A DNA stretch of 64,000 bases from Rhynchobatus australiae (lineage: Eukaryota): the NCBI GenBank assembly GCA_034780895.1, contig JAUZTB010000087.1:38946026-39010025 (forward strand), given 5' to 3'. The notes beneath the pieces were generated by a model that saw only the letters and a list, made by a program, of their open reading frames with translations, ran no database searches and had not been told where the DNA came from. Each line of letters starts with the position of its first letter. The first letter of the stretch is position 1. Positions 3,905-60,620 of the stretch are shown here, piece by piece. The translations under genes were made by a program, and so were the position numbers.

Positions 3905-5061
3905 GTACTGTGCAACTAAGCAATTTTTTGTTCGCATGAAATGGTCATTCCTCCCCACCATTTAAAGACGTTTTGATCTAAACATTACAGAATTTAAGTG
4001 TATGACGTGCTCTCATTGTGTTCCCATTTACCCTGATGTGATGGGAGAAGTCGGAATGAATAATTCCTCCTCTGCATGCTTATGGCATTCTGCAGCACAT
4101 CAGTTTAAAAAAATGACACCTTAATGCAAATCTGTGCAATAGCTTGTAAATTTTAAAAACATCGATGCTAATTTCACATAAACATCATTATTCATTAAAT
4201 CTATCAAGAGAATCAAATGTTCCAGCAGGTTGAATTTGAAGCATTTTTTTAAGTCTACTTTTTATGTTTTGTCAAATTTATGAAGCATTGGTTAAGAGCT
4301 TTTTAACTATTCGTATTTTCCTTAAGAATATCTAACATCCATATGTAATATAGATTTGAGAATACATCTGATGATAGGACACTGGATAAACTTTGGTGCA
4401 AATTAAACTTTTTTTAAAAATTGCATTATGCACTTGTAGTAATAGCTAAAAATTCCATGAAACTTCACANNNNNNNNNNNNNNNNNNNNNNNNNNNNNNN
4501 NNNNNNNNNNNNNNNNNNNNNNNNNNNNNNNNNNNNNNNNNNNNNNNNNNNNNNNNNNNNNNNNNNNNNNNNNNNNNNNNNNNNNNNNNNNNNNNNNNNN
4601 NNNNNNNNNNNNNNNNNNNNNNNNNNNNNNNNNNNNNNNNNNNNNNNNNNNNNNNNNNNNNNNNNNNNNNNNNNNNNNNNNNNNNNNNNNNNNNNNNNNN
4701 NNACTCTTAACCTACATTCATTCACCTGTCATACCATAACTGATTTTCTCCCAAGATAACATTCTTTATTTTTCAGTAACCTCTTGCATGATTTCTGCTA
4801 CTTCAGCAATCTACTCATCCAAAGCAAATAATAATTATGTATAGACACTTTTGTAGTTGATGCCTCTGATCTCATGATGAGTGAAGAAATTATGTAAAAC
4901 AAATAATGTATTCAACAGCAATTAGTTATTGTACCAGGAACAAAATAATTTAGTAATCCATCACCTAACACTCAGCTGTGAAATTTGCCTTTAAGGTAAT
5001 GTCTGTAATATTTGGTTTGTTCATGCCCTAAGTGTCATCTTCTATTATTTTTCTGCTATAG

Positions 5062-5091
5062 TCTCTTGGAATGCTATCACCATACTCACAG
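5062..5091 (+). CDS. ABLIM3: ABLIM3 30-nt exon (SLGMLSPYSQ), phase 0-0
   Basis: Acceptor ttttctgctatag and donor gtaatt. Matches recalled human SLGTLSPYSQ. Confidence 0.9.
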
Positions 5092-5324
5092 GTAATTCCA
5101 ATCTTTTTGTTTGTTATAAAAATGCAATGTATTTAGAGGCTTGTGAACAGATAAGAGAGATCAGCATTATTGAGCCAGATCAGCCTTGATCCTGCCCACC
5201 ACTGTGCCACACTTGGCCTTCCTTCCTTCCCTCCCTCCCCGTCCTCAGTACTTTTCCCTTATTCACATTAACTTTTTGCAGCCTTGTCTGCCCAATCATC
5301 CTGGAAGCCTGGAGAAACAAGAGA

Positions 5325-5482
5325 CTACAACTGCTGAATTCTGGAGCAAAATAAAACAAACCACTGGGGGAACTCAGCAAGCTGAGCAGCATCTGTGGAG
5401 ACAAAGGGATAAGTCTTGATGCAGTGCCACAACCTGAAACGCTGACAATCCCTATGCCCCCACAGATGCTGCTCAAGTTCCT
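5325..5482. mobile_element. Penelope-like terminal repeat fragment in inverted-repeat arrangement with degenerate hammerhead motif
   Basis: ggaactcagc...gcagcatctgtgg family motif; perfect 15-bp inverted arms at 5384-5398 and 5460-5474. Confidence 0.6.
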
Positions 5483-5842
5483 GGAAACCTGCCCACTGCA
5501 GCCACCCCGTTCAGTAGAACATGCCACAAATACAGCTAGATCTCAGACAGCAGATTCTGAGACCCCACCCCACTTTAGAGCTCGTTGCTCTCAAAGTCCT
5601 TTGAAGAGTTTCAAGTGTCTATGATACTGAGAAACCTCTAAAAACAAATCAGGTAGAAAACAAATCAAATAAAAACAATTTTATTTCATTCAAATAAAAT
5701 TAAAAAGGAACACATTTAAATATGATCACTTTAAAACACTTTAATTAAAAGCATGAAGATAATGTGAGAAAAAAGACTTACCTGCACTGATCTTTAAATC
5801 AAGGTCAAGTAAATGAGGTTGTGGTACAGATATCCAGCATCA

Positions 5843-6130
5843 CTGGAAACACAGAAACAGGCCCTTCAGCCCAACTCATCTATGCTAACCAAGATGCTGT
5901 TCTGAGCTAGTCCCATTTGCCTGTGTTTGGTCCATATCCCTCTAAATCTTTTCCAACCACGTACCTGCCTAAATGTCTTTTAAACATTGTAATTGTACCT
6001 GCTTCGACAATTTCATCTGGCAGCTCACTCTATATATCCACCAGCCTCTGTGTGAAAATGTTTCTCCTCAAGTCCCTGTTATATCATTTCCCTTTCAGCT
6101 TAAATCTTTGTCCTTCAGTTTTAGACTCCC
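5843..6130 (-). mobile_element. CR1 LINE 3' end fragment
   Basis: gaaacaggcccttcagccca tail hairpin and ccaccagcctctgtgtgaaa, the reverse complement of the CR1 FFTQRVV region. Confidence 0.75.
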
Positions 6131-6914
6131 ATATCCTGAGTGTGAAGTGCACCTGTCCCCTGGACTTGGTGCTGAGTTCAGCTCAGACCTCCAGCTCATC
6201 TCTGATGTCTGTGATTTAGTACACAGTCGTGGAGGTTGGAGGCAGGTTGACCCANNNNNNNNNNGAACCACTAGTAAAAGACCAGTACAATGCAGGCCAA
6301 TCTGGTTTTCTCATCAAAAGGATAAGAATCTCAGAAAATTCTTAACGAATCATCTGTGACAATGTCCCATAGAGAATATTGATTAGCAAAGAGTAATTAT
6401 TGCTTCAGACTATCCATCAAAAACTATAAAAGAGCTTTTTGCTCTCATCAGTGTGCTAAGAGCCTGAAGATAGGATCTACCATCAGCTGCTGNNNNNNNN
6501 NNNNNNNNNNNNNNNNNNNNNNNNNNNNNNNNNNNNNNNNNNNNNNNNNNNNNNNNNNNNNNNNNNNNNNNNNNNNNNNNNNNNNNNNNNNNCTTCTTGT
6601 CTAAAACATTTCAAAGCGAAATGTATAAAACGAACATCCAATGAAAGAGGCAGAAGGCCAGTTTAATATGTAATTGGGGTCTTGCACTTATTGCAGAGAA
6701 GCTCACTTGGTGTGGAGAGGCCCAGCCTTTAATAAAAGGTGCCTCAATGTCACACTCATTTTAATTCTGAATCAAAAAAAAAATCTATCAGTTTCTCCAT
6801 GTGCCTGAATAATTGCTTTACTCCGAGCAAAAGTAATTGGATGCACACAACACAAGAAGATAGGTGCAGGAAAAGCCCACTCTGCCCTTCAGGATTGCTG
6901 ATCTATGCTGGTCT

Positions 6915-7235
6915 CAGTTCCTCTTCTGTGCCAGTTCCCCATAGCCCTCAATTCCTCGACCCTTCAAATACTTATCTATCTCCACCTTAAATAAATCTAA
7001 TGATCTGACCTCCACCACCCTTGGGGGCAGAGAATTCCAGAGATTCACGACTCTCTGAGAGAAGAAATTTCTGCACAGCTCAGTTGTAAATCACTGACCC
7101 CTGATTTGTAGCTATGTCTCTTTGTTCGGAACTCTCCTACACAGGAAAAATCTCAACCTCTACCCTGTGAAGCCTCCTTAGGATCTTATATGTTTGAATA
7201 AGGTCACCCTTCATTCTTCTAAATTCGAGGGAATC
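6915..7235 (-). mobile_element. CR1 LINE 3' fragment
   Basis: agagaattccagagattcacgactctctgagagaagaaatt and ataaggtcacccttcattcttctaaa are typical reverse-complement CR1 ORF2-end sequence. Confidence 0.75.
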
Positions 7236-8349
7236 CAAACCTGAAATACTGGATTTCAATGGAGAAAATTGATCAATTGAAAACTAATTAGTTGAAATGT
7301 TCCAAGCTCCAAAATGGAATCATCTTAAACATGGTTTACTAAATCTTCAACTGCAATGCCTCTGTCTCTCAGAGTACTATTTTCCCTTCTACTCTCTGTA
7401 ATGGCACAACATTTGAAAGATAGTGTGAAATGGCCATTTAGTAGCACTACTTAATTTTTAAGTGATGGCCCACAACCAATTTGTACAACAGCATGGCACA
7501 GAGTGACAGATTAAGACACTGCCGTGGGTGTCGAAGAATTTATAGCCTAAAGAATATTCAGGCATTGTCAATGCTCCATTAAGTGATTGACAGTTCCACT
7601 TTTCACGTCAAAGTATTAAAGAAGAAAATGGAGTGTTTTACTTGCGACTGAGAGTTTTTCAGCTAAAACATTCTCTAAAATTGTTTAGTGTCCAAACAAG
7701 ATTCTTTAAATACCTTTGAGCCTCAACGTTGGATAAATGTAAAGTTGCAGTCTCATTTTGTAAAGGAATTAGGTGCTGATTTTATCCAATGTTGAATCTT
7801 CAGGTCCAGTACCTCAGCTGGAGAAATAGTTCAGAACATCTGCAATTACCCCAACATCTGGCAGCCTTTCAATCACTTTTCAGATAATGAACTGCAAACC
7901 TGGAATGACACCTATTTTATCCAGCAATACAACAGCACTGGAGGGATCTTGCTGTGCCTTTTAGCAAAGAGAAAAGCATTCTGACCAGCAGGATGAAACG
8001 TTATGGCACATTTTGCAAAGCAGATGGAAGCAGTAATATTTTGCTTTTTCAAGAGCCTCACTGATCAATAGATGTTTTTGATGGAAGATGAAATGAACTG
8101 AGAAACCCATAGACAACAGCTATTTTTCCAATGCCTTTAATATTTAATCACCCTCATCCCTGTCTGTGCTCCCCAAGTATGTTTTACATGATTTGAACTT
8201 AATTATGAAATTTATAATATAATTCTAATTCCATAAGTTACAATGTATGATTGCATTTTAATTTGCTATAAAGCAAAGCTGGAGCTTTCAGGACAGCATC
8301 CTGTATATTTGAAATGCTATGATAACTTTATTATTAANNNNNNNNNNNN

Positions 8350-8890
8350 TCATTACAAGATAGAAGACCATACAGCCCATCAAGTCTGTGCAGGCTCCTG
8401 TTAACTCAATCCTGTCAGTCCCATTTCTCCCTTTCTTTCTACGTGGCACTGCACATTATTTTCCCTCAAATGCATATTCACTTCTCTTTTGAAAGCTCTG
8501 ACTGTTTCCATCACCTTCATAGTCACCAAGTTTTGGATCATAATTGCTCTCATGGTGTATAAAAGAAAATTCCCTTACATCTCCCCTGAATCTTTTGCCT
8601 AGGGCTTCATGTCTATGCCTCTTGGTCCTTGAACCATCCACTAATGGAAACAGTATCTCTATATTTACTCAATCTAAACTCCTCAGGATTTTGAACACCT
8701 CTATTTCAACTTCCTTTGTTGTAAGGAGAACAATCCCACCTCCTCCAATTGAAACTTATAGATGCACTCCCTCGTCTTTGAAATTATTCCAGTAAGTCTT
8801 TTTTGCCCCTCTCTATAGTCTGTACAGAACTGGATGTAATACTCTAATTGTAGCCTAGCCAGTGTTTTATAGAGTTTGAACATAATCTCC
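8350..8890 (-). mobile_element. CR1 LINE 3' fragment (decayed)
   Basis: Minus-strand remnants LYKTLARLQLEYYIQF and TKRHRH...RFRGDVREFSF. Confidence 0.75.
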
Positions 8891-9117
8891 TGATAATAAG
8901 AGTATGCTGCAGTATAATATCTAGGAGACTCACTGTTTGGAGTACATTAAATAATATATTAGTCTCTGATCTAACAGAAAGCAATAAGTATTTGTACAAG
9001 GTAAGGATGGACACTAATTAGATTGGTACAACATATTAGACTGATGATATTAGGTACAATTAATGCACCTTTTGTAATTCTTATGTACCATCTGTAGTCC
9101 ATTTTGCCTCTGAACCT

Positions 9118-14242: not shown

Positions 14243-14345
14243 GTGGAAAACACAATGATGTTGGAGGATCTCAGCAGGCTTGCTGAGTTCCTCCAGCATC
14301 ATAGTGTTTTTCGCCTAGATTCCAGCATCTGCAGTCCTTTTATTT
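14243..14345. mobile_element. Penelope-like terminal repeat fragment forming a hairpin
   Basis: 30-bp inverted arms (14247-14276 and 14281-14310) of the same family as the copies at 49258 and 55940. Confidence 0.6.
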
Positions 14346-30847: not shown

Positions 30848-31160
30848 CATAGTCATCCAACGTGGAAACTGGCCCTTTGGCCCAATAGGTCCATGCTGAC
30901 AATCAAGCACCCATACATCCCATTGTATTCTCCCCACATTCCCATCAATTCCTCCCAGATTCTACTGCTTGCCTACATACTAGGAGCAATTTACATTGGC
31001 CAATTAACCTACCAACCCACACATCTTTCAGATGTGAGAGGAAACTGGAGCGCCTGGGAGAAACCCACACAGCCATAAGGGAGAATGTGCAAACTCCACA
31101 TAGACAGCACTAGTTGTCAGGATGGACCCCAGGTCACTGGAGTTGCACTACTGTACTGCC
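30848..31160 (-). mobile_element. tRNA-derived V-SINE (HE1-like) with CR1-like tail
   Basis: Tail ggccctttggccca; V domain ggaaactggagcgcctgggagaaacccac...gggagaatgtgcaaactccaca. Confidence 0.75.
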
Positions 31161-31297
31161 ACTAAGCCTGTACCTATGTTTCACATGATACTCCCCTCCA
31201 TCTGCTGTGCCTTGCCTTTCTGAATTTCTTTCTATTCCTTTTTTCCATCGGGTATTTGTGTAGCCTCTCCTTTAAGACTTCTATGCTGTTTGCTTCA

Positions 31298-31592
31298 ATA
31301 AGATCAGATAAAATATCTTTATTAGTCACATGTACAACAAAACACACAGTGAAATGCATTTTTTGCATCCAGTGTTCTGGGGGCAACCCGCAGTGTCGCC
31401 ACACTTCCGACGCCAACATAGCATGCCCATAACTTCCTAACCCGTATGTCTTTGTTGTGGGAGGAAGCAGGAGCACCCAGAGGAAACCCACACAGACACA
31501 GGGAGAATGTACAAGCAGGCAGTGGCCAGAATTGAACCCGGGTCGTTGGTGCTGTAAAGTGTTACGCTAACTACTACACTACTGTGCCTGCC
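31298..31592 (-). mobile_element. tRNA-derived V-SINE with a non-CR1 tail, nested in an old CR1 fragment
   Basis: Minus strand has an A box (TAGTGTAGTAGTTAG), a B box (GGGTTCAATTC), the V domain, and the tail GTACATGTGACTAATAAAGATAT... Confidence 0.8.
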
Positions 31593-39405: not shown

Positions 39406-39695
39406 TATAAGATATCTTTATTAGTCATATGTACATTGAAACACACGGTGAAATGTATCTTTGCGTAGAATGTTCTGGGGGCAGCCTGCAAGTGTCGCCA
39501 CGCTTCCGGCGCCAGTGTAGTATGCCCACAACTCCCTAACCCGTAGGACTTTTGGAATGTGGGAGGAAACCGGTGCACCTGGAGGAAACCCATGCAGACA
39601 CAGGGAGAATGTACAAACTCCTTACAGGCAGTGGCCAGCATTGAACCCGGATCACTGGCGCTGTAATAGTGTTATTGCCAACCGCTACACTACCG
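39406..39695 (-). mobile_element. tRNA-derived V-SINE with a non-CR1 tail (same subfamily as 31298-31592)
   Basis: Colinear similarity to 31298-31592 over the whole length; B box GGGTTCAATGC; tail ...GACTAATAAAGATATCTTAT. Confidence 0.8.
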
Positions 39696-40237
39696 TTTGT
39701 TGAAGAACTTGTATTACATGGTTACATTTATGTTTGAGACAAATGAAAGCAAGAACCCCCATGATGACATTATACAGTAAAATCATTGAGCCAGAAAAAC
39801 ACCTTGNNNNNNNNNNNNNNNNNNNNNNNNNNNNNNNNNNNNNNNNNNNNNNNNNNNNNNNNNNNNNNNNNNNNNNNNNNNNNNNNNNACTCAAATTGGA
39901 TTAATTCCTGTTAGTAATGTCATCAACTTTGGTCTTTCAAACAGACATCAGTCCTTCCATATTTCAGTTGGAAAGAAATTGCTAATGGTAATAATCATCA
40001 GGAGATTGTTGGCAGCAATTTTCCACTGGCTGTTCATTTCAGTAATTTCAATTGCAATCAATAGCACTATCTCAGACTGTGATTAAAAAAATCTATTTTC
40101 TCTAGTTGACATCCTTGCTGAGTTAGATGAAAGGTGCTCTTTGGTAAAGCATTTGAACCAATTTAGGTAAGAGTGAGATTCCAGGAGGAACAATTCCACT
40201 ACCTTATTCTAATTTGCATTGAATCCTCTGATTGCAG

Positions 40238-42219: not shown

Positions 42220-45200
42220 TTTCTTTGGCCAGAGGTGTGGTGCTGATGGACTGCAATGGTATAGTTACAGAAACAGACACTGTTCCTTGCCACAAAGACA
42301 GAGAGTTCAAAAGGTTGTGGTGCCTGCCTGGTGCTAGGGTTAAGGACATCTCATGANNNNNNNAACTTGGAGTGGGAGGAGAAAAATCCCAATTGTCATG
42401 GCCACATATGCACCAATGACATAAGTGGGACTATGAAGGAGTTTCTGATGAGAGATTATATAGCGCTCAGGGCAAAATTGAAAAGCAGAATCATTAGGGG
42501 ATAATCTTCAGATTATTACCTGAGTTACATGCAAATTGGCAAAGGGTAAATAGGATTAGAGAGTTTAATGCAAGACTCAAAGCATGGTGTGAGAGAAATG
42601 GGTTCCAACCCATGGGACACTGGCAACAATACTGGGGAAGAAGAAAGCTGTTCTGTTAGGATGGGCTCCACCTGAATCATACTGGGACCAGTGTCCTGGC
42701 AAATCACATAACTAAGTTATAGATTGAGCTTTAATCTAAATAGGAAGAGGGAGGGCTCCAAGAATGGGATAGTTGATAAATCAGGAGGAAATGAAAGAGT
42801 GGTGATGGAGAATAGTGACGTGAAAGCTGATAAATGAGATGTGACAGGCTGGAGCAGAAAATGTGAAAAGAGGTGGGTGGTAGGATTGTTAATCCACAAA
42901 GGTATCAGAGCAGTTCTGAGTCGTGATATACAGGCATTTGACTAGTAATGTACATTTGGTTTGGGTTGAAACCATGAATGGCAAGGGAAAGAAGATACAG
43001 GGGTGGGTCATCTATAAGCACCCAAAATGCGACCTCTTGATAGGGCAGAGCTTAATTGGGGAAATGTCAAGGGCATGTCTGAAGGGAACTGCAGTTGCTA
43101 TGGGAGATTTTAGTCTACATATTGATTGGATGAACCAAATTGACAAGGGTATCGTTGAAGAATTTGTGAGAGAGGGTTAGAGTTGCTTCCTAGAAAAGTA
43201 TGTCACAGAACCTACCTAGGATCAGGTTGCTTTAGATTTGATTATAAGATATGAGAAATGATTAATAAGAAATCATATGGGTAAAGACACCTAGGAGGCT
43301 GTGGCCACAATGTGATAGAATTCCAGATGCATTTTGAAGGTGGACACCACAGGACTAAATCTGCTTTCTTAGATAAGGGTGATTACAATTGTTTGAAGGT
43401 GGAATTGTCAAAGGCAGACTGGGAAAATCAGCTAAGAGACAGGTTATTAAGGAACAGTGATAGATGGTCCATAACACAAGGCAGGAATTTATCCCAATTA
43501 GAAAGAGGGATTCCATGAGGAAGAGGCACAATCTATGGTTAACAAAAGTGATCAAGAATAATGCTAAATTGAAAAGTAGAGCATAAAAGCAGCAGGGGCT
43601 ACTGATAGGCTGGAGGACTGGGAATTTTTTAGGATCTAGCAGCAAAAAACTAAAAAGCTCATAAGAAGGGAGAATATTGATTTTGAGAGAAAACTTGTGG
43701 GTAATATCAAAACAAAGAGTAAGAGTTCCTCTGGATATATAAAGAGGAAGAAGGCAGCTGAGGCAATTGTAGGACCTCTGGAAAACAAAGCTGGTAAATT
43801 AATAACAGGAAACAAAGAAATGGCAGATGTGTTAAATCTATTTTTTTTTGCATCAGTCATCACCTTGGAGGACATGGTAAATATCCCTAAGATAACAAGT
43901 GGGCTGTTTTCAAATAACAGTAAAGAACTTCTCAAAAATCCCAATCACAAGGGATAAACTATTGGAAAAACTCACAGAACTAAAGGCAACAAATCTCCAG
44001 GACCCGTTGGCCTGCACTCAAGGGTTTTTAAGAAAGTGGTTGCATAGTGGACACATTGGTTTAAATTTTTCAAAATTTGCTAAATTCCTGGAGCTAACCA
44101 GAAGATTGGAAAACAGCCAACGTGATTCCTTTCTTCAGAAAGGGAGAAAGACAGAAGATGGGGAACTATAGGTCAGTTATTTTAACATCTTTTGTTGGCA
44201 AGCTGCTANNNNNNNNNNNNNNNNNNNNNNNNTAATGAATCATTTAGGATCAAACCTAATTAACATTTTTTTTGAAAGGGAAATCTTGTTTGACAAATTT
44301 GCTTGAATTTTTTGAGGATATGGCAGGAACAGTTGATGGAGGGGAACCTGTAGATATAGAGTATTTAGATTTCCAGAAGGTGTTTGACAAGTGCTGCACA
44401 AGAGGCTGGTGCAAAAATTAAGAGCCCAAGGTCTTAGAGGAAGTGTGTTAACATGGACTGAAAACTGGTTGTGACATAGAAAACAAAGAGTTGGAATAAG
44501 TGGGTCATTTCGGGCTGGAAGGATGTGACCCTAATGGAGTATCCCAGCGATCAATTGTTTACTATTTGCATTAATGGCCTGGAGAAAGGAGCGAAATGTA
44601 AGGTTTCAAGGTTTGATGATAATACAAAAATAAGTGGAAGGGCATGTTGTGATGAAGGCATTGTGAATCTGCAATGGGATATAGAAAGATTGAGTGACTG
44701 GGCAAAAACCTTGCAAATGGAGTTTAATGTGGGGAAGTGTGAATTCAGGTACTTTGGTAAGAGGAAGCAAAAGGAGGATTATGNNNNNNNNNNNNNNNNN
44801 NNNNNNNNNNNNNNNNNNNNNNNNNNNNNNNNNNNNNNNNNNNNNNNNNNNNNNNNNNNNNNNNNNNNNNNNNNNNNNNNNNNGGTAAGAGGAAGCAAAA
44901 GGAGGATTATGATCTAAGTGGAGAGAGACTGGAATGAATAAAGTTCAGAGGGTTCTAGGTGTTGTAGTGCATGAATCACAAAAATTTTGCAAGCAGGTCC
45001 AACAAGTAGTTAAGGAGGTCAAATAGAATGTTGGTCTTTGTTGCAAAGAAGTTGGAGTTGAAGAAGAGGGAGGTTTTGTTACAGTTGCATAGGGAGTTGC
45101 TGAGGCCACACTTGGGAAACAATGCACAGTTTTGGTCCCCTTAACAAAAAACAACATAGCAGCATTGGTGGCAGTCCAAACTAACCTCTGTAAAGAGATT

Positions 45201-45397
45201 AACCAGGCTAATTCCTGGGATGAGAGGATTGCCCTACCAACTGAGGCTAGATAGTTTGGGACTATATTCCTTGGAGCTTAAAAGATTGAGTGGTGACCTT
45301 ATTCAAACATATGAGATCCTAAGAGAGCTTTACAGGGTAGATGCTGAGATGTTTTCGCCAGTGGGAGATTCACAAAAAAGGGGACATACAGTAGTTA
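42220..45397 (+). mobile_element. Long decayed CR1 LINE: ORF1 esterase (SGNH) remnant plus ORF2 endonuclease and reverse transcriptase
   Basis: ORF1 remnants WCLPGARVKDI and DGLHLNHTGTSVLANHI. ORF2 remnants MGDFSLHIDW, NYRSVILTSFVGKL, KSCLTNLLEFFED, YLDFQKVFDK, FDDNTKI, LGLYSLELKRLSGDLI. Many stops and frameshifts. Confidence 0.9.
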
Positions 45398-45939
45398 NNN
45401 NNNNNNNNNNNNNNNNNNNNNNNNNNNNNNNNNNNNNNNNNNNNNNNNNNNNNNNNNNNNNNNNNNNNNNNNNNNNNNNNNNNNNNNNNNNNNNNNNNNN
45501 NNNNNNNNNNNNNNNNNNNNNNNNNNNNNNNNNNNNNNNNNNNNNNNNNNNNNNNNNNNNNNNNNNNNNNNNNNNNNNNNNNNNNNNNNNNNNNNNNNNN
45601 NNNNNNNNNNNNNNNNNNNNNNNNNNNNNNNNNNNNNNNNNNNNNNNNNNNNNNNNNNNNNNNNNNNNNNNNNNNNNNNNNNNNNNNNNNNNNNNNNNNN
45701 NNNNNNNNNNNNNNNNNNNNNNNNNNNNNNNNNNNNNNNNNNNNNNNNNNNNNNNNNNNNNNNNNNNNNNNNNNNNNNNNNNNNNNNNNNNNNNNNNNNN
45801 NNNNNNNNNNNNNNNNNNNNNNNNNNNNNNNNNNNNNNNNNNNNNNNNNNNNNNNNNNNNNNNNNNNNNNNNNNNNNNNNNNNNNNNNNNNNNNNNNNNN
45901 NNNNNNNNNNNNNNNNNNNNNNNNNNNNNNNNNNNNNCT

Positions 45940-46780
45940 AGGAAGGAGTTTGTTGAAGTCCCGCATGGCAGATCCAGAATGTAAAAGTCAATGGGATCCA
46001 AGTAAAGTGGCAAATTGGATTAAAAATAGGCTCTGTAGCAGAAAGCAGAGGGAAACAATCAACCAGAATTTCATTAATGAGGGAGCTGTATGTAATGGTG
46101 GTTCCTGTGCTCCCCGACAACTCACTAGGGCTCCGTTTCCCAAGCTCCCCATCTCAGAGCTGGGACCCTGATTCCTGTACTCCCTTTAAAGTCACCCGGT
46201 TCTGTTGGCCACACTTCCCTTGTAAATTACTGGGTTCACTGAAATGTCGGTGTGTGGCATCTGTACCTAAGTAAAGAGGTTGTGCTAGGACTGTAAAAAG
46301 CATTCAGTTACGCTGCATTTGGAGTACTATGTGTAATTCTAGTGACCACATTGCAGATGTGCTCGCAGCAGCAAGAGGAGATTGTGAGGATGTTGCCCTG
46401 GTTGGAGAATTGTGGTTTTCAGGAGAGACGTCCAGGCCATGGTTGTTTTCTTTGGAACAAAGGAGATAGAGGAGAGATTTAAATGAGGTGTATAAAATTG
46501 TAAGAGGCCTGAGCAAAGTAAGGACCTACTTTCTTCAGTAGAAAGGTGAGGAATCAGGGAGCATAGATTTGTTAACTGGTAGAAAGATTAGTGGAAGGGA
46601 CTTCAAATATTTTTCACTCAACAAGTGTAGGGGCTCGAACTCAGTGCCTTAAAAACTCAAGGAATATCTGGATGCCTATGTGAAGAACCAGAAGCCAACT
46701 ATAGAGCAAGCATTGGGAAGTAGGATTGATCTAAGATCTATTCTTGACTGTCATGGACATAATTATCTATGATTCTGAGA
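45940..46780 (+). mobile_element. Fragmented CR1 LINE RT/3' pieces
   Basis: KVANWIKNRLCSRKQR and LFSLEQRR.RGDLNEVYKI remnants; atctatgattctg terminus. Confidence 0.7.
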
Positions 46781-49257: not shown

Positions 49258-49429
49258 TGTGTGAAAAAAACAATGATGCCGGAGGAACTCAGCAGACCAG
49301 GCAGCATCCGTGGAGAAAAGCAGGTGGTCAACGTTTCGAGTCAGGACCCTTTTTCGGGACTGAAGATAGGAAAAGGGGAAGCCCAATATATAGGAGGGAA
49401 AAGCAGAGCAGTGATAGGTGGACAAAAGA
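49258..49429 (-). mobile_element. Penelope-like terminal repeat with mutated hammerhead motif
   Basis: ggaggaactcagcag...gtcaacgtttcgagtcaggaccct; same family as 55940-56100. Confidence 0.6.
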
Positions 49430-55200: not shown

Positions 55201-55939
55201 AGACATGTTGGTTCAAAAGGCACCGTATTACCATTATTATCTGGATGCAAAGAGTTTCAAAACAACTCTCAAGATAACATCATTGGGAAAGGTGGTTATT
55301 GGTCTACTAAATTTAAATCCTGACCAACGTCAATTGTCTATACCATATAATTCAACAGAACTTGTTCATTATTGTTGTGCTGCCTGACAATTTTAATCAT
55401 TATTCCCTGAGGTAAGAAATTCAGTGTCCTTCCATATAAGATGCAACAGTGCCCTACAAAGAATGTTGCCCATTAGTTTTGGGAATCTGAAAATCTAAAC
55501 ATCTAGTGTGATTTGTACAGCTGACATAATGGGGCTGATTTTTTTGTTTCCATGGTGCAAATGTGTGCGTGATGGATGAGCTCAAAGTGAGACCTTGGGA
55601 CGACATGAATAATTTTCATAATCAGGCTTCATTACCATGAGTGACAGTGCAAAATGAGCATGACAATAGGTCAGCCACTGTGGGGACAGGAAATCCAATA
55701 GCTCCTCTGTCAGTTAATCCAGGCATGTACAGTTAAAGAGGATAGAAACCTATCCTGAGGAAGAGCAGGAAAGGACCAACACCAGGCCAGAAAATGTTGA
55801 AGGCTCATTTTACTACATTCTTATAAATCAGTGCTCTGGATTATCTGACAGCATTTTTGGATTGGCCTTCAGCAGTTCCTTCAGGAATGACTGCTTAGAT
55901 CCCGCTATGTCCTGTAGCCAACAGATGGACTGTGCAGAA

Positions 55940-56100
55940 TCACAAGAGATTCTGCAGATGCTGGATGTATCTGGAGCAATTCACAAAAAGTGGTGCAGGA
56001 ACTCAGCAGGTCAGGCAGCATCCATGGAGGGAAATAGACTGTCAACGTTTCAGGCCAAGACCCTTCATCAGGACTGGAAAGCAAGAGGGCAGAAGCCAGG
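55940..56100 (-). mobile_element. Penelope-like terminal repeat carrying a hammerhead ribozyme motif
   Basis: ctgcagatgctgg...ggaactcagcaggtcaggcagcatc...gtcaacgtttcaggccaagacccttcatcaggac. Confidence 0.65.
56041..56074 (-). ncRNA. Minimal type I hammerhead ribozyme motif
   Basis: Minus strand reads GUC-CUGAUGA-AGGGUCUUGGCCU-GAAAC-GUU-GAC: complete catalytic core, stem I GUC/GAC, stem II AGG/CCU, palindromic minimal stem III, NUH triplet GUU. Confidence 0.7.
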
Positions 56101-59073
56101 GGTGCACAGAGTTAGTTCACCCCTGGAATCCCACAACCGATTTGATTGGTCTTCGATTTCAGGTAGGTGCAAAGGTGCCCATTTCAAGTGCAGTCTCAGA
56201 ATAACAGCATGCCTGCTCCCCAACCATTCACTCTGCACAACAGCTATCTGAGTCAGATTATCCCAGCCCTCACTGAAATAGTGCTGTCTGCCTCAAGGTT
56301 CAGAGTTGCTCCAGGTCATCCTCTGCAGCCATTCAATATGCCTTCAGTGGATGCTCAACATTAGAAGAGGAAGATAAGCAGACATGACAGGTACAATAGA
56401 GTGCACAAAAAATTTCTGTACCACCAGCTAAGGGCAGGAAACACCAGAATCAGCAGCACTGCACTAATTTAGATTTAATTGGTTCAGCACAAGCCAGGCA
56501 CCATTCCTGGAAACCTATATCTGTTAACAATTAGAGAAAGATGGAATTGATTTCTTTTCTGGATATAGTACTGGTGTTTCATTTACAAGACACATAAAAA
56601 TGGATCTAAAAAGTTAATAGGATGATGGTAGAAAGGGAAGCTTGGTGCAAGCCTGGGTCTGGCTTTCTGTGGTTCCTTCAGGAATAACAGATCGGATCAC
56701 CAATGGATTCCAGAGGTCAATGTCGATCTTGGTCATCTCTCATTCTATGCTGCTGCTCCTGCTCTTCCTTTCTTTTCTAGCTGCCCGGGTTGTGCTAAGA
56801 TCTGGTCTCAGAACGCAGCAGGCCACCACAGACTCATAAACCTACTCTGGGCTACTGCCAAGGTAGTAAGCTCCAGAAATGCTGATGACATGTCTACCTG
56901 ATTACGATTATTGATTTTACTGTTTTTAGCCAACTCTGCAGCTATAACCAAGCTCCTGACAGAAGTCTCAAATGCTATCTGAAGAATCTTGCTTTTGTTA
57001 CCTGCATGCTAAGCTCTAACCTTATAGCCTGGTTGGGATAAAGGCAGCACAGAGGGCTGGCATAGAATAAATGAACCATGACTGCCACCCAGCAAACTAA
57101 GTGCAGAGCTGCAGGAAGCACTGCTAGTATTTGCAAACAGACTTAACGTTAAGGGAGTGACATTTCTTTCTATTTAGAAAGATTCTAGGCTGATAATGCA
57201 GTCAAGGTATTGTGAGTACAGTATAAGACATATTGAACCTTGGGGAAATTTGCTGTACATGTGGCACCTAGTGCAATTTTGTCTTGAATAAATCTGTCCG
57301 TAGAGAGCCCAATCCTCCCAGTGTGGGGAGTCAAGATGATCTCTCAGATATGACTGCAGAGGAACGTTGCTGGTATCATCTCCAGAAAGCTCTGGCCATC
57401 TGAATAACACATCATAAACAGGATTTCCTCCAGAACCCTTGACCATAATTATACACAAATGAAGATGGAATTGTGCAACATGATATGATATTGTTGTTGA
57501 TCATTATATTTTCCAATCCTAATTTTTAGTAAATCTGAGGGATGATATGAAAGCCACATTAAAAGGATTAACAATATTCAAAGTCCAGAAAGTAACATGG
57601 TGATCTTGCAGTGTTGCTATCAATGTACTGGTACTATGAAATCAAAATCAATTGAATTACAGATTGAAAATATATCCTTAACTCCTTATGCATTAGGGGC
57701 AATGGATTATAGGCAAGCAAAGGGTCCTAGCTTGCTTATGCTGTTCTATCATAAAGCCCACCATATAAGTCGACTTGTGCATATCTTCATTGAAAACTTC
57801 TCAGCATCTTTTCACAAACTGTTTTCTCTATGTGATTGAGAGCTACTCATCTTGTAAGCAGTGCATAGCATGGCCAAAATCTNNNNNNNNNNCGACCAGA
57901 TCACAAGGGTTATAAAACTTGCAAGTCAAAGCTTGAAACTTGTGGCACTATCGGCAGTGTGTGGACATTTGCAGAATGGGTTGGTATGGCAGGTCTTCAC
58001 TATCCAAGCAGCAGGGAAGGGGACAGCCAATACAACATTCAGTGGGTGGTGGGGTCCAACAGACAAAGCAACGTGGCAGAACAAATGTGGCTCCAGCTGA
58101 TGTCTTGATCTGTGGATTGATACTTTAGCAACGTACACAAGAGTGTGCAGGTAAGCCCCTGCACTCCACCCCTCCTTTTTGGTCCCTTCAAAAATTTCAT
58201 TGGAAACCAGAGCATCTAGAGAAAACCTATGCTCAACCTTCACACAAACAGCAATCAAGATCAGGGTTCAACCCAGGTCCTGGAGCTGTGATTCTACAGT
58301 AATCAAATCAGGGCAGCATTGGCATCATTGGTACTTGTTCAAGCATCTCTCAACATTAACTAAGTATTAACAAAATTAATCGGTACCCAATTACCTGCAC
58401 TGGAAAGCACATTTTCGTATGGATTTGGTCCATGCAGTGATGTCCTCCATGCTCAAGCAATCTGCTAAGATACAACATCATGACTCAACCATGAAGAGAG
58501 ACTGATGAATGACAAACAGTGTTGCCAACATCAAGCCATTTTACTGATGCAAAGGACATTTCTTATGTGGGATCTGAAATTTTGAGGTGATATTTGGACA
58601 GGAAGAGACCTCTTTTAACCACATCCCTTCCCTGAGCAAAGCTACCAATAAAATTATTGCCAGTAATAGAGTGGAATAATAGAGATAGAATAATAGGTTT
58701 GCGAGATTTCTTCTCCAAAATCAATTAAAAATTAAATTGAATAATGATGAAATGAAAAATAGAACTGATAATAAAACTTTGTTTCCTTTTGTCAATTTGA
58801 TGCAATTCATTTTTCAGTGAAAATCTCAAGTAGAAAACTGACATTCTGAAAAGCTTCCTTTTCCAGATATCAGCCTTTATTTCAGTAACTGCAGATGCTT
58901 CTCTTATGATGAGACATGATATTGATTGTAAATAAAAGCAGAATCTTCTGGAGATAATGTGCATAATTTTCAGATGAGGGTTACAAAGTTCTACTATGTA
59001 GGAACAATATGAGTGACCTAATTTATTTTGTGTAGAAATGTAACANNNNNNNNNNAGAATGACTGAAATGGAA

Positions 59074-59624: not shown

Positions 59625-60620
59625 TTTTATTCATTCAAGGCATGTGGTCTTCAATAGGCTGAGCCAGCATTTAATTTCCCATCCCTGTTTACCCTTGAGA
59701 AGGTGGTGCTGAGCTGCCTTCTTGAACCGCTGCAGTCCATGAGATGTAGATATGCCCACAATGCTACTAAGGAGAGAATTTCAGGATTTTGACCAAATAA
59801 TAATGAAGAATTGGTAATACATTTCCAAGTCAGAATGGTGTGTGGCCTGGAGGACAACTTCCAGGCAGTGGTGTTTCCCCACGCTTTTGCTGTCCTTGTC
59901 CTTCTAGCTGGTAGAGCTTGTGCATTTGGAAGGTACTGTCCAAGGAGTCTTGATGAGTTGCTGCAGTACATCCTGTAAATGGTACAAACTGTTGCTACTG
60001 TGTGCTGATGGTGGAGTGAGTGAATGTTTGTGGACAGGGAGTCTATTTAAGTGGGCTGCATTGTTCTGTATAGTGTCGAGCTTCTTGAGTGTTGCTGAAG
60101 ATGCACTCATCCAGGCTAGTGGAGAGTATTCCATTACACTCCTGACTTGAATCTTTGGAAGCTACAAGATGAGTTACTTGCCACAGGACTCCTAGCCTCT
60201 GATCTGTTCTTGTAGCCACATTCTGTATTTGGCTATTCCAATTCAGAGTCTGGGCAATGGTAACTCCCAGGATATTCAGTGTGAGATTCAGTGATGGTAA
60301 TACTATTGAATGTCAGGGGGTGATAGTTAGATTTTCTCTTGTTGGATTTCATTATTGTCTGGCACTTGTTTGCTGCAAATGTTACTTGCCACACATCTGC
60401 CCAGGCCTGGACATTGTGCAGGTCTTGCTTCCTTTGGATGTGGACTGCTTCATTATATGAGGAGTCATGAATGGTGTAGAACATTGGACAATCACCAGTG
60501 AACACCCCTACTTCTGACCTTATGTGTGAAGGAAGGTCATTTATAAAGCAGCGAAAGGTGGTTGGGCCAAGGACTATATCCTGAGGAGCTCCTGAAGAGA
60601 TGTCCTGTCCAGGCACCTAT
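59625..60620 (-). mobile_element. 3' part of a second non-LTR LINE family (CR1/L2 superfamily), RT remnant plus 3' UTR
   Basis: SGAPQDIVLGPTTFRCFINDLP (PQG..LGP RT motif), AWADVWQVTFAANKCQ, MEYSPLAWMSA...LDTIQ; distinct from the CR1 family above. Confidence 0.8.

Follow-up and report, generated by a model that had tools for sequence, protein, structure and literature searches.

The window, i.e., the whole stretch of 64,000 nucleotides from contig JAUZTB010000087.1 of Rhynchobatus australiae, contains five matches to one repeat family at four places (Table 1), one of them an inverted pair at 5314-5483, in agreement with the four repeats counted in the earlier note. Three of these places cover a hammerhead ribozyme motif, as that note had stated, but the core is broken at the two besides 56041-56074. 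On the minus strand, positions 56074-56041 carry a complete hammerhead core with C3 at 56071, A9 at 56065, an extra A at 56064, stem II at 56063-56052, G12 at 56051, and H17 at 56044 (sequence readout); the letters, coordinates, core, and predicted cut were all as previously claimed. No host exons were recognized by eye among the 46 window frames of at least 110 aa. X1, possibly RNA, covers the repeat and nothing beyond it, and was left aside as a sign of expression. Two frames (44480-46171 and 60233-60616) are by eye what we take to be CR1/LINE RT fragments, and a repeat family of ~290 bp occurs at 31005-31585 and 39407-39696. Weak Rfam miRNA matches at the inverted pair correspond to the Penelope-like element (PLE) pair itself, and fold-backs of this kind could seed small RNAs.

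Table 1. Features of the hammerhead-bearing repeat family in the window.
Feature	Position	Strand	Remark
Minimal type I hammerhead	56039..56076	-	Core intact; predicted cut 56044/56043
Changes in the window hammerhead	56063/56052, 56044, 56040, 56057	-	G·U at 10.1-11.1 (56063/56052), U at 17 (56044), a mispair in stem I (56040), C>U in loop II (56057)
Penelope-like pLTR fragment lacking its 5' part, subfamily A	55941..56099	-	~7-10% diverged from closest relatives
Tail downstream of the cut, up to the shared 3' end of the family	55941..56043	-	Putative internal RT start
Last part of the element's pyrimidine-rich 3' UTR	56076..56099	-	Resembles, together with the AG that follows, a splice acceptor; spliced forms not seen
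First A of stem I, 32 nt before the cut	56075	-	Putative +1 of the family transcript
Second copy, subfamily B	49264..49379	-	Core broken (U4C, G8A)
Head-to-head inverted pair, C-type (C at position 9)	5314..5483	.	Core broken
Tail-only fragment	14277..14336	+	Adjoins assembly gap

A target-site duplication was not found for the window copy (55941..56099). Contigs from a related organism (X3, flanks ~2.5-3% different) reach the element from either side and enter it by 30 and 21 letters, overlaps that fall below the 31-letter minimum and suggest an old insertion that X3 may share. In contigs from two other runs, 55748 is followed at once by 55941 (with 21 letters on the shorter arm), and without the intervening 192 bases (55749-55940) the usual last four bases of the element come directly next. 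Both junctions of this segment, which may be a later insertion into the end of the element, bear short inverted repeats. A 9-bp inverted repeat with a 13-nt loop (56095-56125) lies at the copy's 5' junction, and one of its arms overlaps the first bases of the element.

The family register consists of a bulged A followed by a 4-bp stem II with G10.1-C11.1 and a tetraloop, and its stem III is the 4-nt palindrome ACGU without a loop. The window copy contains the CUGANGA and GAAA..UH parts of the core and the palindromic 15.2-16.2 (ACGU), without helix III, and has U at 11.1, at 17, and in loop II, all three of which are CpG sites, as well as A at 1.4. The G10.1-C11.1 pair, kept by the family and by subfamily A (C11.1 in 11/13), is absent from it (G·U). 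The description of the motif as intact was borne out for the core, which is whole, but not for G10.1-C11.1 (now G·U), C17 (now U), or stem I, which is one pair short. The 3-bp, A-U-closed stem II that had been proposed is possible in the window copy because C11.1 is U there, contains one mismatch in the intact natural copy L111, and gave way to the family register. Similarly, the proposed palindromic AACGUU stem III arises from C17U, and GUU is the right cut site for the window copy but the subfamily A site is GUC. Stem I, of 5 bp in subfamily A, is down to 3 bp in the window copy since U1.4 is replaced by A at 56040.

By itself, the loose core pattern is weak, with 13 matches in the window compared to 5.6 expected; the window 34-mer folded no better than shuffles (z = 0.17), and an Rfam search of the window at E ≤ 5 gave no hammerhead match. 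The genome-wide search for minimal hammerheads that the earlier note had called for returned 367 exact matches to the family motif versus 0 for the reversed control, and the motif in the window is not a chance occurrence. Among 149 sampled motif-covering copies, 23 keep the core and a single one keeps everything; the window copy, in which the core, the CG palindrome, and a 3-bp stem I are all there, ranks among the better preserved. Its predicted stem I and II fold has -5.9 kcal/mol compared to -11.5 for L111. A G·U at 10.1-11.1 and a GUU site both slow hammerhead cleavage. No single lesion proves inactivity, as GUU is native to subfamily B (17/17) and subfamily D has A/G-U at 10.1-11.1. No paper measuring the effect of G10.1·U or GUU on cleavage was found in the literature, and the available part of PMC544870 mentions G10.1-C11.1 solely for the miniribozyme.

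The possibility that the window copy works as a ribozyme within a host transcript, by itself or paired in trans with any of the thousands of copies, would have in its favor the complete core, the ability of stems I and II to form at the predicted energy, and the trans partners supplied by the very high copy number. The monomer, however, has no helix III and carries three weakening changes, single minimal hammerheads did not cleave and dimers did so little (PMC4209133), eight of nine Xenopus dimers failed to cut (10.64898/2026.07.22.740005), and the window copy displays no sign of selection since its changes are the usual CpG decay of the family. Such activity was considered very improbable. 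The window copy is worn and solitary, and likely inert. We hold with good confidence that its motif is a solitary minimal hammerhead, now decayed, from a Penelope-like retrotransposon's terminal repeat (pLTR); the clade is likely Neptune, and the motif is likely unable to cut.

Five subfamilies (A-E) were distinguished by sorting 83 copies on tail sequence only. Subfamily A (13 copies) has a 5-bp stem I, the bulged A, a stem II of 4 bp with G10.1-C11.1 as its closing pair, the ACGU palindrome, and a GUC site, the latter in 10/13 of its copies and in 74 of the first 100 of 367 exact motif matches listed. The extra A between positions 9 and 10.1 was conserved in 13/13, 17/17, and 23/23 subfamily copies. 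Subfamily B, likely the youngest, has A at N7, its GUU site in all 17 copies, and 1,812 exact tail matches. In subfamily C (194 exact motifs), position 9 is C in 22/23 copies and is followed by an invariant A (23/23), and position 4 is A in 8/14 copies of subfamily E. The most decayed subfamily, D, changed the pair 2.1-1.1 from C-G to U-A (11/16 on each side). Regarding the conserved core and stem covariation on which the earlier note had made its proposal depend, the core was present in the majorities of subfamilies A, B, and D, and compensatory change amounted to one clear and one probable event. Among subfamilies, N7 and loop II vary; this variation, with that at paired positions, is consistent with the parent elements having been selected for the fold.

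In three subfamily B copies (L286, L287, and L300), the A at N7 gives, by eye, a 7-bp inverted repeat together with the sequence immediately preceding stem I. Read-through RNA, unlike RNA from the putative +1, could have the 5' half of its ribozyme masked by this repeat. An initial impression that C-type copies were without a coding part (0/30) was overturned by L117, L152, and L264, which link the two. Literature searches did not find the U4A hammerhead variant, the position-9 variant, or the G surplus described below, and the extra nucleotide next to G10.1 came up in PMC4209133 only; supplements were partly covered, and others may bear on the latter two.

The parent is a Penelope-like element. 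In the 30 best copies the 3' end is common to all, ~105 nt past the cut, and the 5' ends are ragged. Longer copies continue upstream into the pyrimidine-rich UTR and then a frame that encodes a CX4CxxC finger and a GIY-YIG/CCHH domain (GIY-YIG at E = 0.034 in Pfam, below cut-off). The EN frame search gave 49,587 first-look candidates in the genome, among which long "open frames" were rejected as runs of N, and Pfam returned nothing relevant on six degraded frames. The RT part of L057 has 45% identity to P0004 across 355 aa (E = 1e-94), P0004 bears both RVT_1 and GIY-YIG with Pfam scores below cut-off, and RT with a C-terminal GIY-YIG was found in one frame (frameshifted copies; Pfam near or below cut-off). 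Among the 98 EN matches examined, 33 copies show the motif downstream of EN, with the stop codon 271-551 nt upstream of the motif in 32 and 40 nt in one. EN-linked copies exist for all five subfamilies. Two copies (L004 and L112) have the pLTR tail directly followed by the 5' part of the element, so that the pLTR lies on both sides of the ORF across copies; a single gap-free copy with both, or an intact full-length element, was not recovered.

The family further displays 5' truncation, inverted 5' copies, and partial tandems, and TSD-like matches of at least 10 bp were found in 24/154 copies with whole 3' ends, some of them being chance or neighboring copies. The finger and GIY-YIG/CCHH frame, the RT, and the pLTR before the 5' part give the layout of an EN+ Penelope-like element, supporting the earlier proposal of a high-copy hammerhead-bearing PLE family and tying it to RT and GIY-YIG frames. 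The CX2-5CxxC linker and the CCHH in EN were seen in P0001 and further frames. Such a linker marks Neptune or Nematis (PMC8557442, in the part available), and the clade is likely Neptune, although both marks are shared by Nematis and would also fit it.

Abundance was estimated from large contigs, in which 136 stretches of 10 kb at even spacing (1,112,233 non-N bases; 1.11 Mb) gave 212 nhmmer matches, or 263 after one rebuild, with none in reversed decoys, extrapolating to ~350,000-430,000 family fragments in the 2.23-Gb genome. Of the 263 matches, 36 head-to-head inverted pairs were identified. Tandem arrays (TRF, period at least 50) in the 1.11 Mb overlapped the family in 0/7 cases, such that the family is not a retrozyme in the sense of the available parts of PMC7229834 and 10.64898/2026.07.22.740005. 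Rare arrays may still exist, since short-read assembly can collapse arrays. An apparent 154-nt dimer (L301) was rejected as a duplicate across a gap, and L111 is likely to be another such case. In L281-L300, 11 of 20 subfamily B copies adjoin an assembly gap in or near the ribozyme, as expected for young inverted copies in a short-read assembly.

A non-LTR retrozyme, whose tandem ribozyme repeats are processed into small circular RNAs, would be suggested by the derivation of retrozymes from pLTRs and their occurrence in one chondrichthyan genome (10.64898/2026.07.22.740005), by 24 same-strand neighbors at most 500 nt apart among the 263 matches, and by the two motifs 306 nt apart in L004. The spacer in L004 is nonetheless the element's own 5' part, the close pairs are dissimilar copies or identical duplicates across 100-N gaps (L301, L200, and L126), no array overlaps the family, and the motif is minimal and not of the canonical type with loop contacts (PMC7229834). 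A retrozyme was thus regarded as extremely improbable, and the small circular RNAs anticipated by the earlier note found no support given the lack of overlapping arrays, the solitary copy, and copies apparently made from uncut RNA (4/128, below).

The 5' ends were read in 128 copies with readable flanks, picked regardless of the ribozyme (32 tail-anchored and 96 from the sample, gap-ended ones being dropped). Ends at the cut as a sign of cleavage in vivo were rejected, with only four copies within 2 nt of the cut, and the copies of the family appear to have been made from uncut RNA. A start between -34 and -27, on the 5' edge of stem I, was seen in 32/128 copies. Missing D and E references can create false 5' ends there, and a local test gave a plateau across five positions (10, 15, 16, 16, and 19 copies), not a spike. 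There were 10,319 exact matches whose first base is the first A of stem I, 1,571 of them preceded by non-C; the preceding base was G in 40, T in 40, and A in 20 of the first 100 of the 1,571 listed, and the G rows fell to subfamilies A (11), B (20), and C (9). One base further up, a purine was present in 457 (G in 36 and A in 64 of the first 100 of 457 listed). Scaled from the matches listed to all matches, G accounts for 6.1% before the first A (10,319 matches) compared to 1.9% one base up, and A is equally common at both places (3.0% compared to 3.3%). The surplus of G is not explained by mutation, as G never precedes the first A in the 118 copies with further upstream sequence. The first A of stem I sits in what is presumably an initiator-like context.

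Splicing at the pyrimidine tract plus AG, or RT stalling and template switching at the local inverted repeat, could also produce the pile-up at this edge: a pyrimidine tract and CAG occur there in all subfamilies, helix I is where an intron of D. virilis ends (PMC4209133), the stop codon is overlapped by a donor-like GTAA, and several inverted arms join near the stem I edge. Against this, a spliced join was seen in 0/33 copies that link EN to a motif downstream (gaps of 40 nt at the shortest and at least 271 otherwise) and in none of the 15 joints listed out of 113, and neither model predicts an excess of G over A before the first A (40:20) but not one base up (36:64; Fisher p = 0.0003 among the matches listed). 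Both models were considered rather unlikely. Untemplated 5' G has been ascribed to cap copying in L1 and SVA (PMC3287187), and the Penelope start site sits within its pLTR (PMC2377424). The G surplus likely reflects a copied RNA cap, which would place the ribozyme at +1 of the transcript; a fixed RNA 5' end, and likely the start of transcription, would lie at the first base of the ribozyme. The window copy begins 24 nt upstream of the first A and would derive from the 3' pLTR or from read-through RNA.

In the proposed life cycle, the RT of the element would start inside the tail and copy uncut RNA back through the ribozyme, stopping in the 3' UTR (56 nt before the cut for the window copy) or at the capped 5' end, likely the first A of stem I. 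The ribozymes of the 5' and 3' pLTRs of one transcript in an active parent would pair via the ACGU palindrome and trim the RNA, probably aided by a protein of the element. After insertion, the copies would decay at CpG sites first (C11.1/G12, C15.2/G16.2, and C17/G1.1). The fixed 3' ends of the family agree with the start of RT inside the tail found in the Anolis element. There, this start produces the tail, the RT works on uncut RNA, and no cutting by the ribozyme was seen unless the protein was present (PMC11167929). A broader reading is advanced tentatively, at somewhat short of an even chance: the hammerhead would be the first 32 bases of a capped transcript, with the cap-derived Gs before stem I in three subfamilies as proof, and the ~140-nt copies would be full-length cDNA of a 5' leader left uncut. 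By cutting, the ribozyme would remove the cap from the RNA of the element and so act as a brake or translation switch and not as a copying step. As the subfamily with C at position 9 still spread, catalysis would be dispensable, or the base would be a bulge between G8 and A9.

As a single motif the window hammerhead is ordinary and belongs to the minimal kind of PMC4209133, and the role of the hammerhead in Penelope-like elements is still open (PMC8557442). The family comprises hundreds of thousands of recorded insertion events, a record suggesting that uncut RNA gets copied and pointing to a precise RNA start at the ribozyme, and it holds natural core variants with C at 9 and A at 4. No on-topic paper on Penelope hammerheads in sharks or cartilaginous fishes was found, supplements being partly covered; those of PMC4209133, as far as covered, contain no shark or ray term, and the rest may list chondrichthyan motifs.

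The comparisons with known systems refer to the available portions of the cited papers. The minimal hammerheads described for metazoan PLE pLTRs by Cervera and de la Pena (2014; PMC4209133), for which no monomer activity was reported, share with the present family the type I arrangement, a palindrome without helix III, the extra nucleotide before G10.1-C11.1, a short helix I, mostly single, dispersed, and truncated PLEs, and several families of sequence in each genome. In R. australiae, helix II has 4 bp compared to 7-8 bp in S. mansoni, the estimated fragments are far above the 4,000-9,000 motifs of coelacanth and Xenopus with intact motifs in <1% of copies, and position 9 is C in one subfamily and position 4 often A in another. 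The EN+ PLEs of the Neptune/Nematis type (Craig et al., 2021; PMC8557442) likewise have RT followed by a C-terminal GIY-YIG with CCHH and the CX2-5CxxC linker, 5' truncation, partial tandems, an inverted 5' copy, and a tail, but no intact copy was found in the present family, whose clade was read from the Nematis-shared linker and CCHH. PAc, the Poseidon element of Anolis (Frangieh et al., 2024; PMC11167929), similarly has fixed 3' ends downstream of the ribozyme and copies from uncut RNA with no ends at the cut site. Its ORF starts inside the ribozyme whereas the presumed coding 5' part comes after the tail here, and the start at the first base of the ribozyme, probable for the present family, is not reported for PAc in the part available. 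Lastly, the non-LTR retrozymes (PMC7229834; 10.64898/2026.07.22.740005) share the type I hammerhead and the kinship with pLTRs, but form tandem arrays with one ribozyme per unit whereas the present family is dispersed or inverted.
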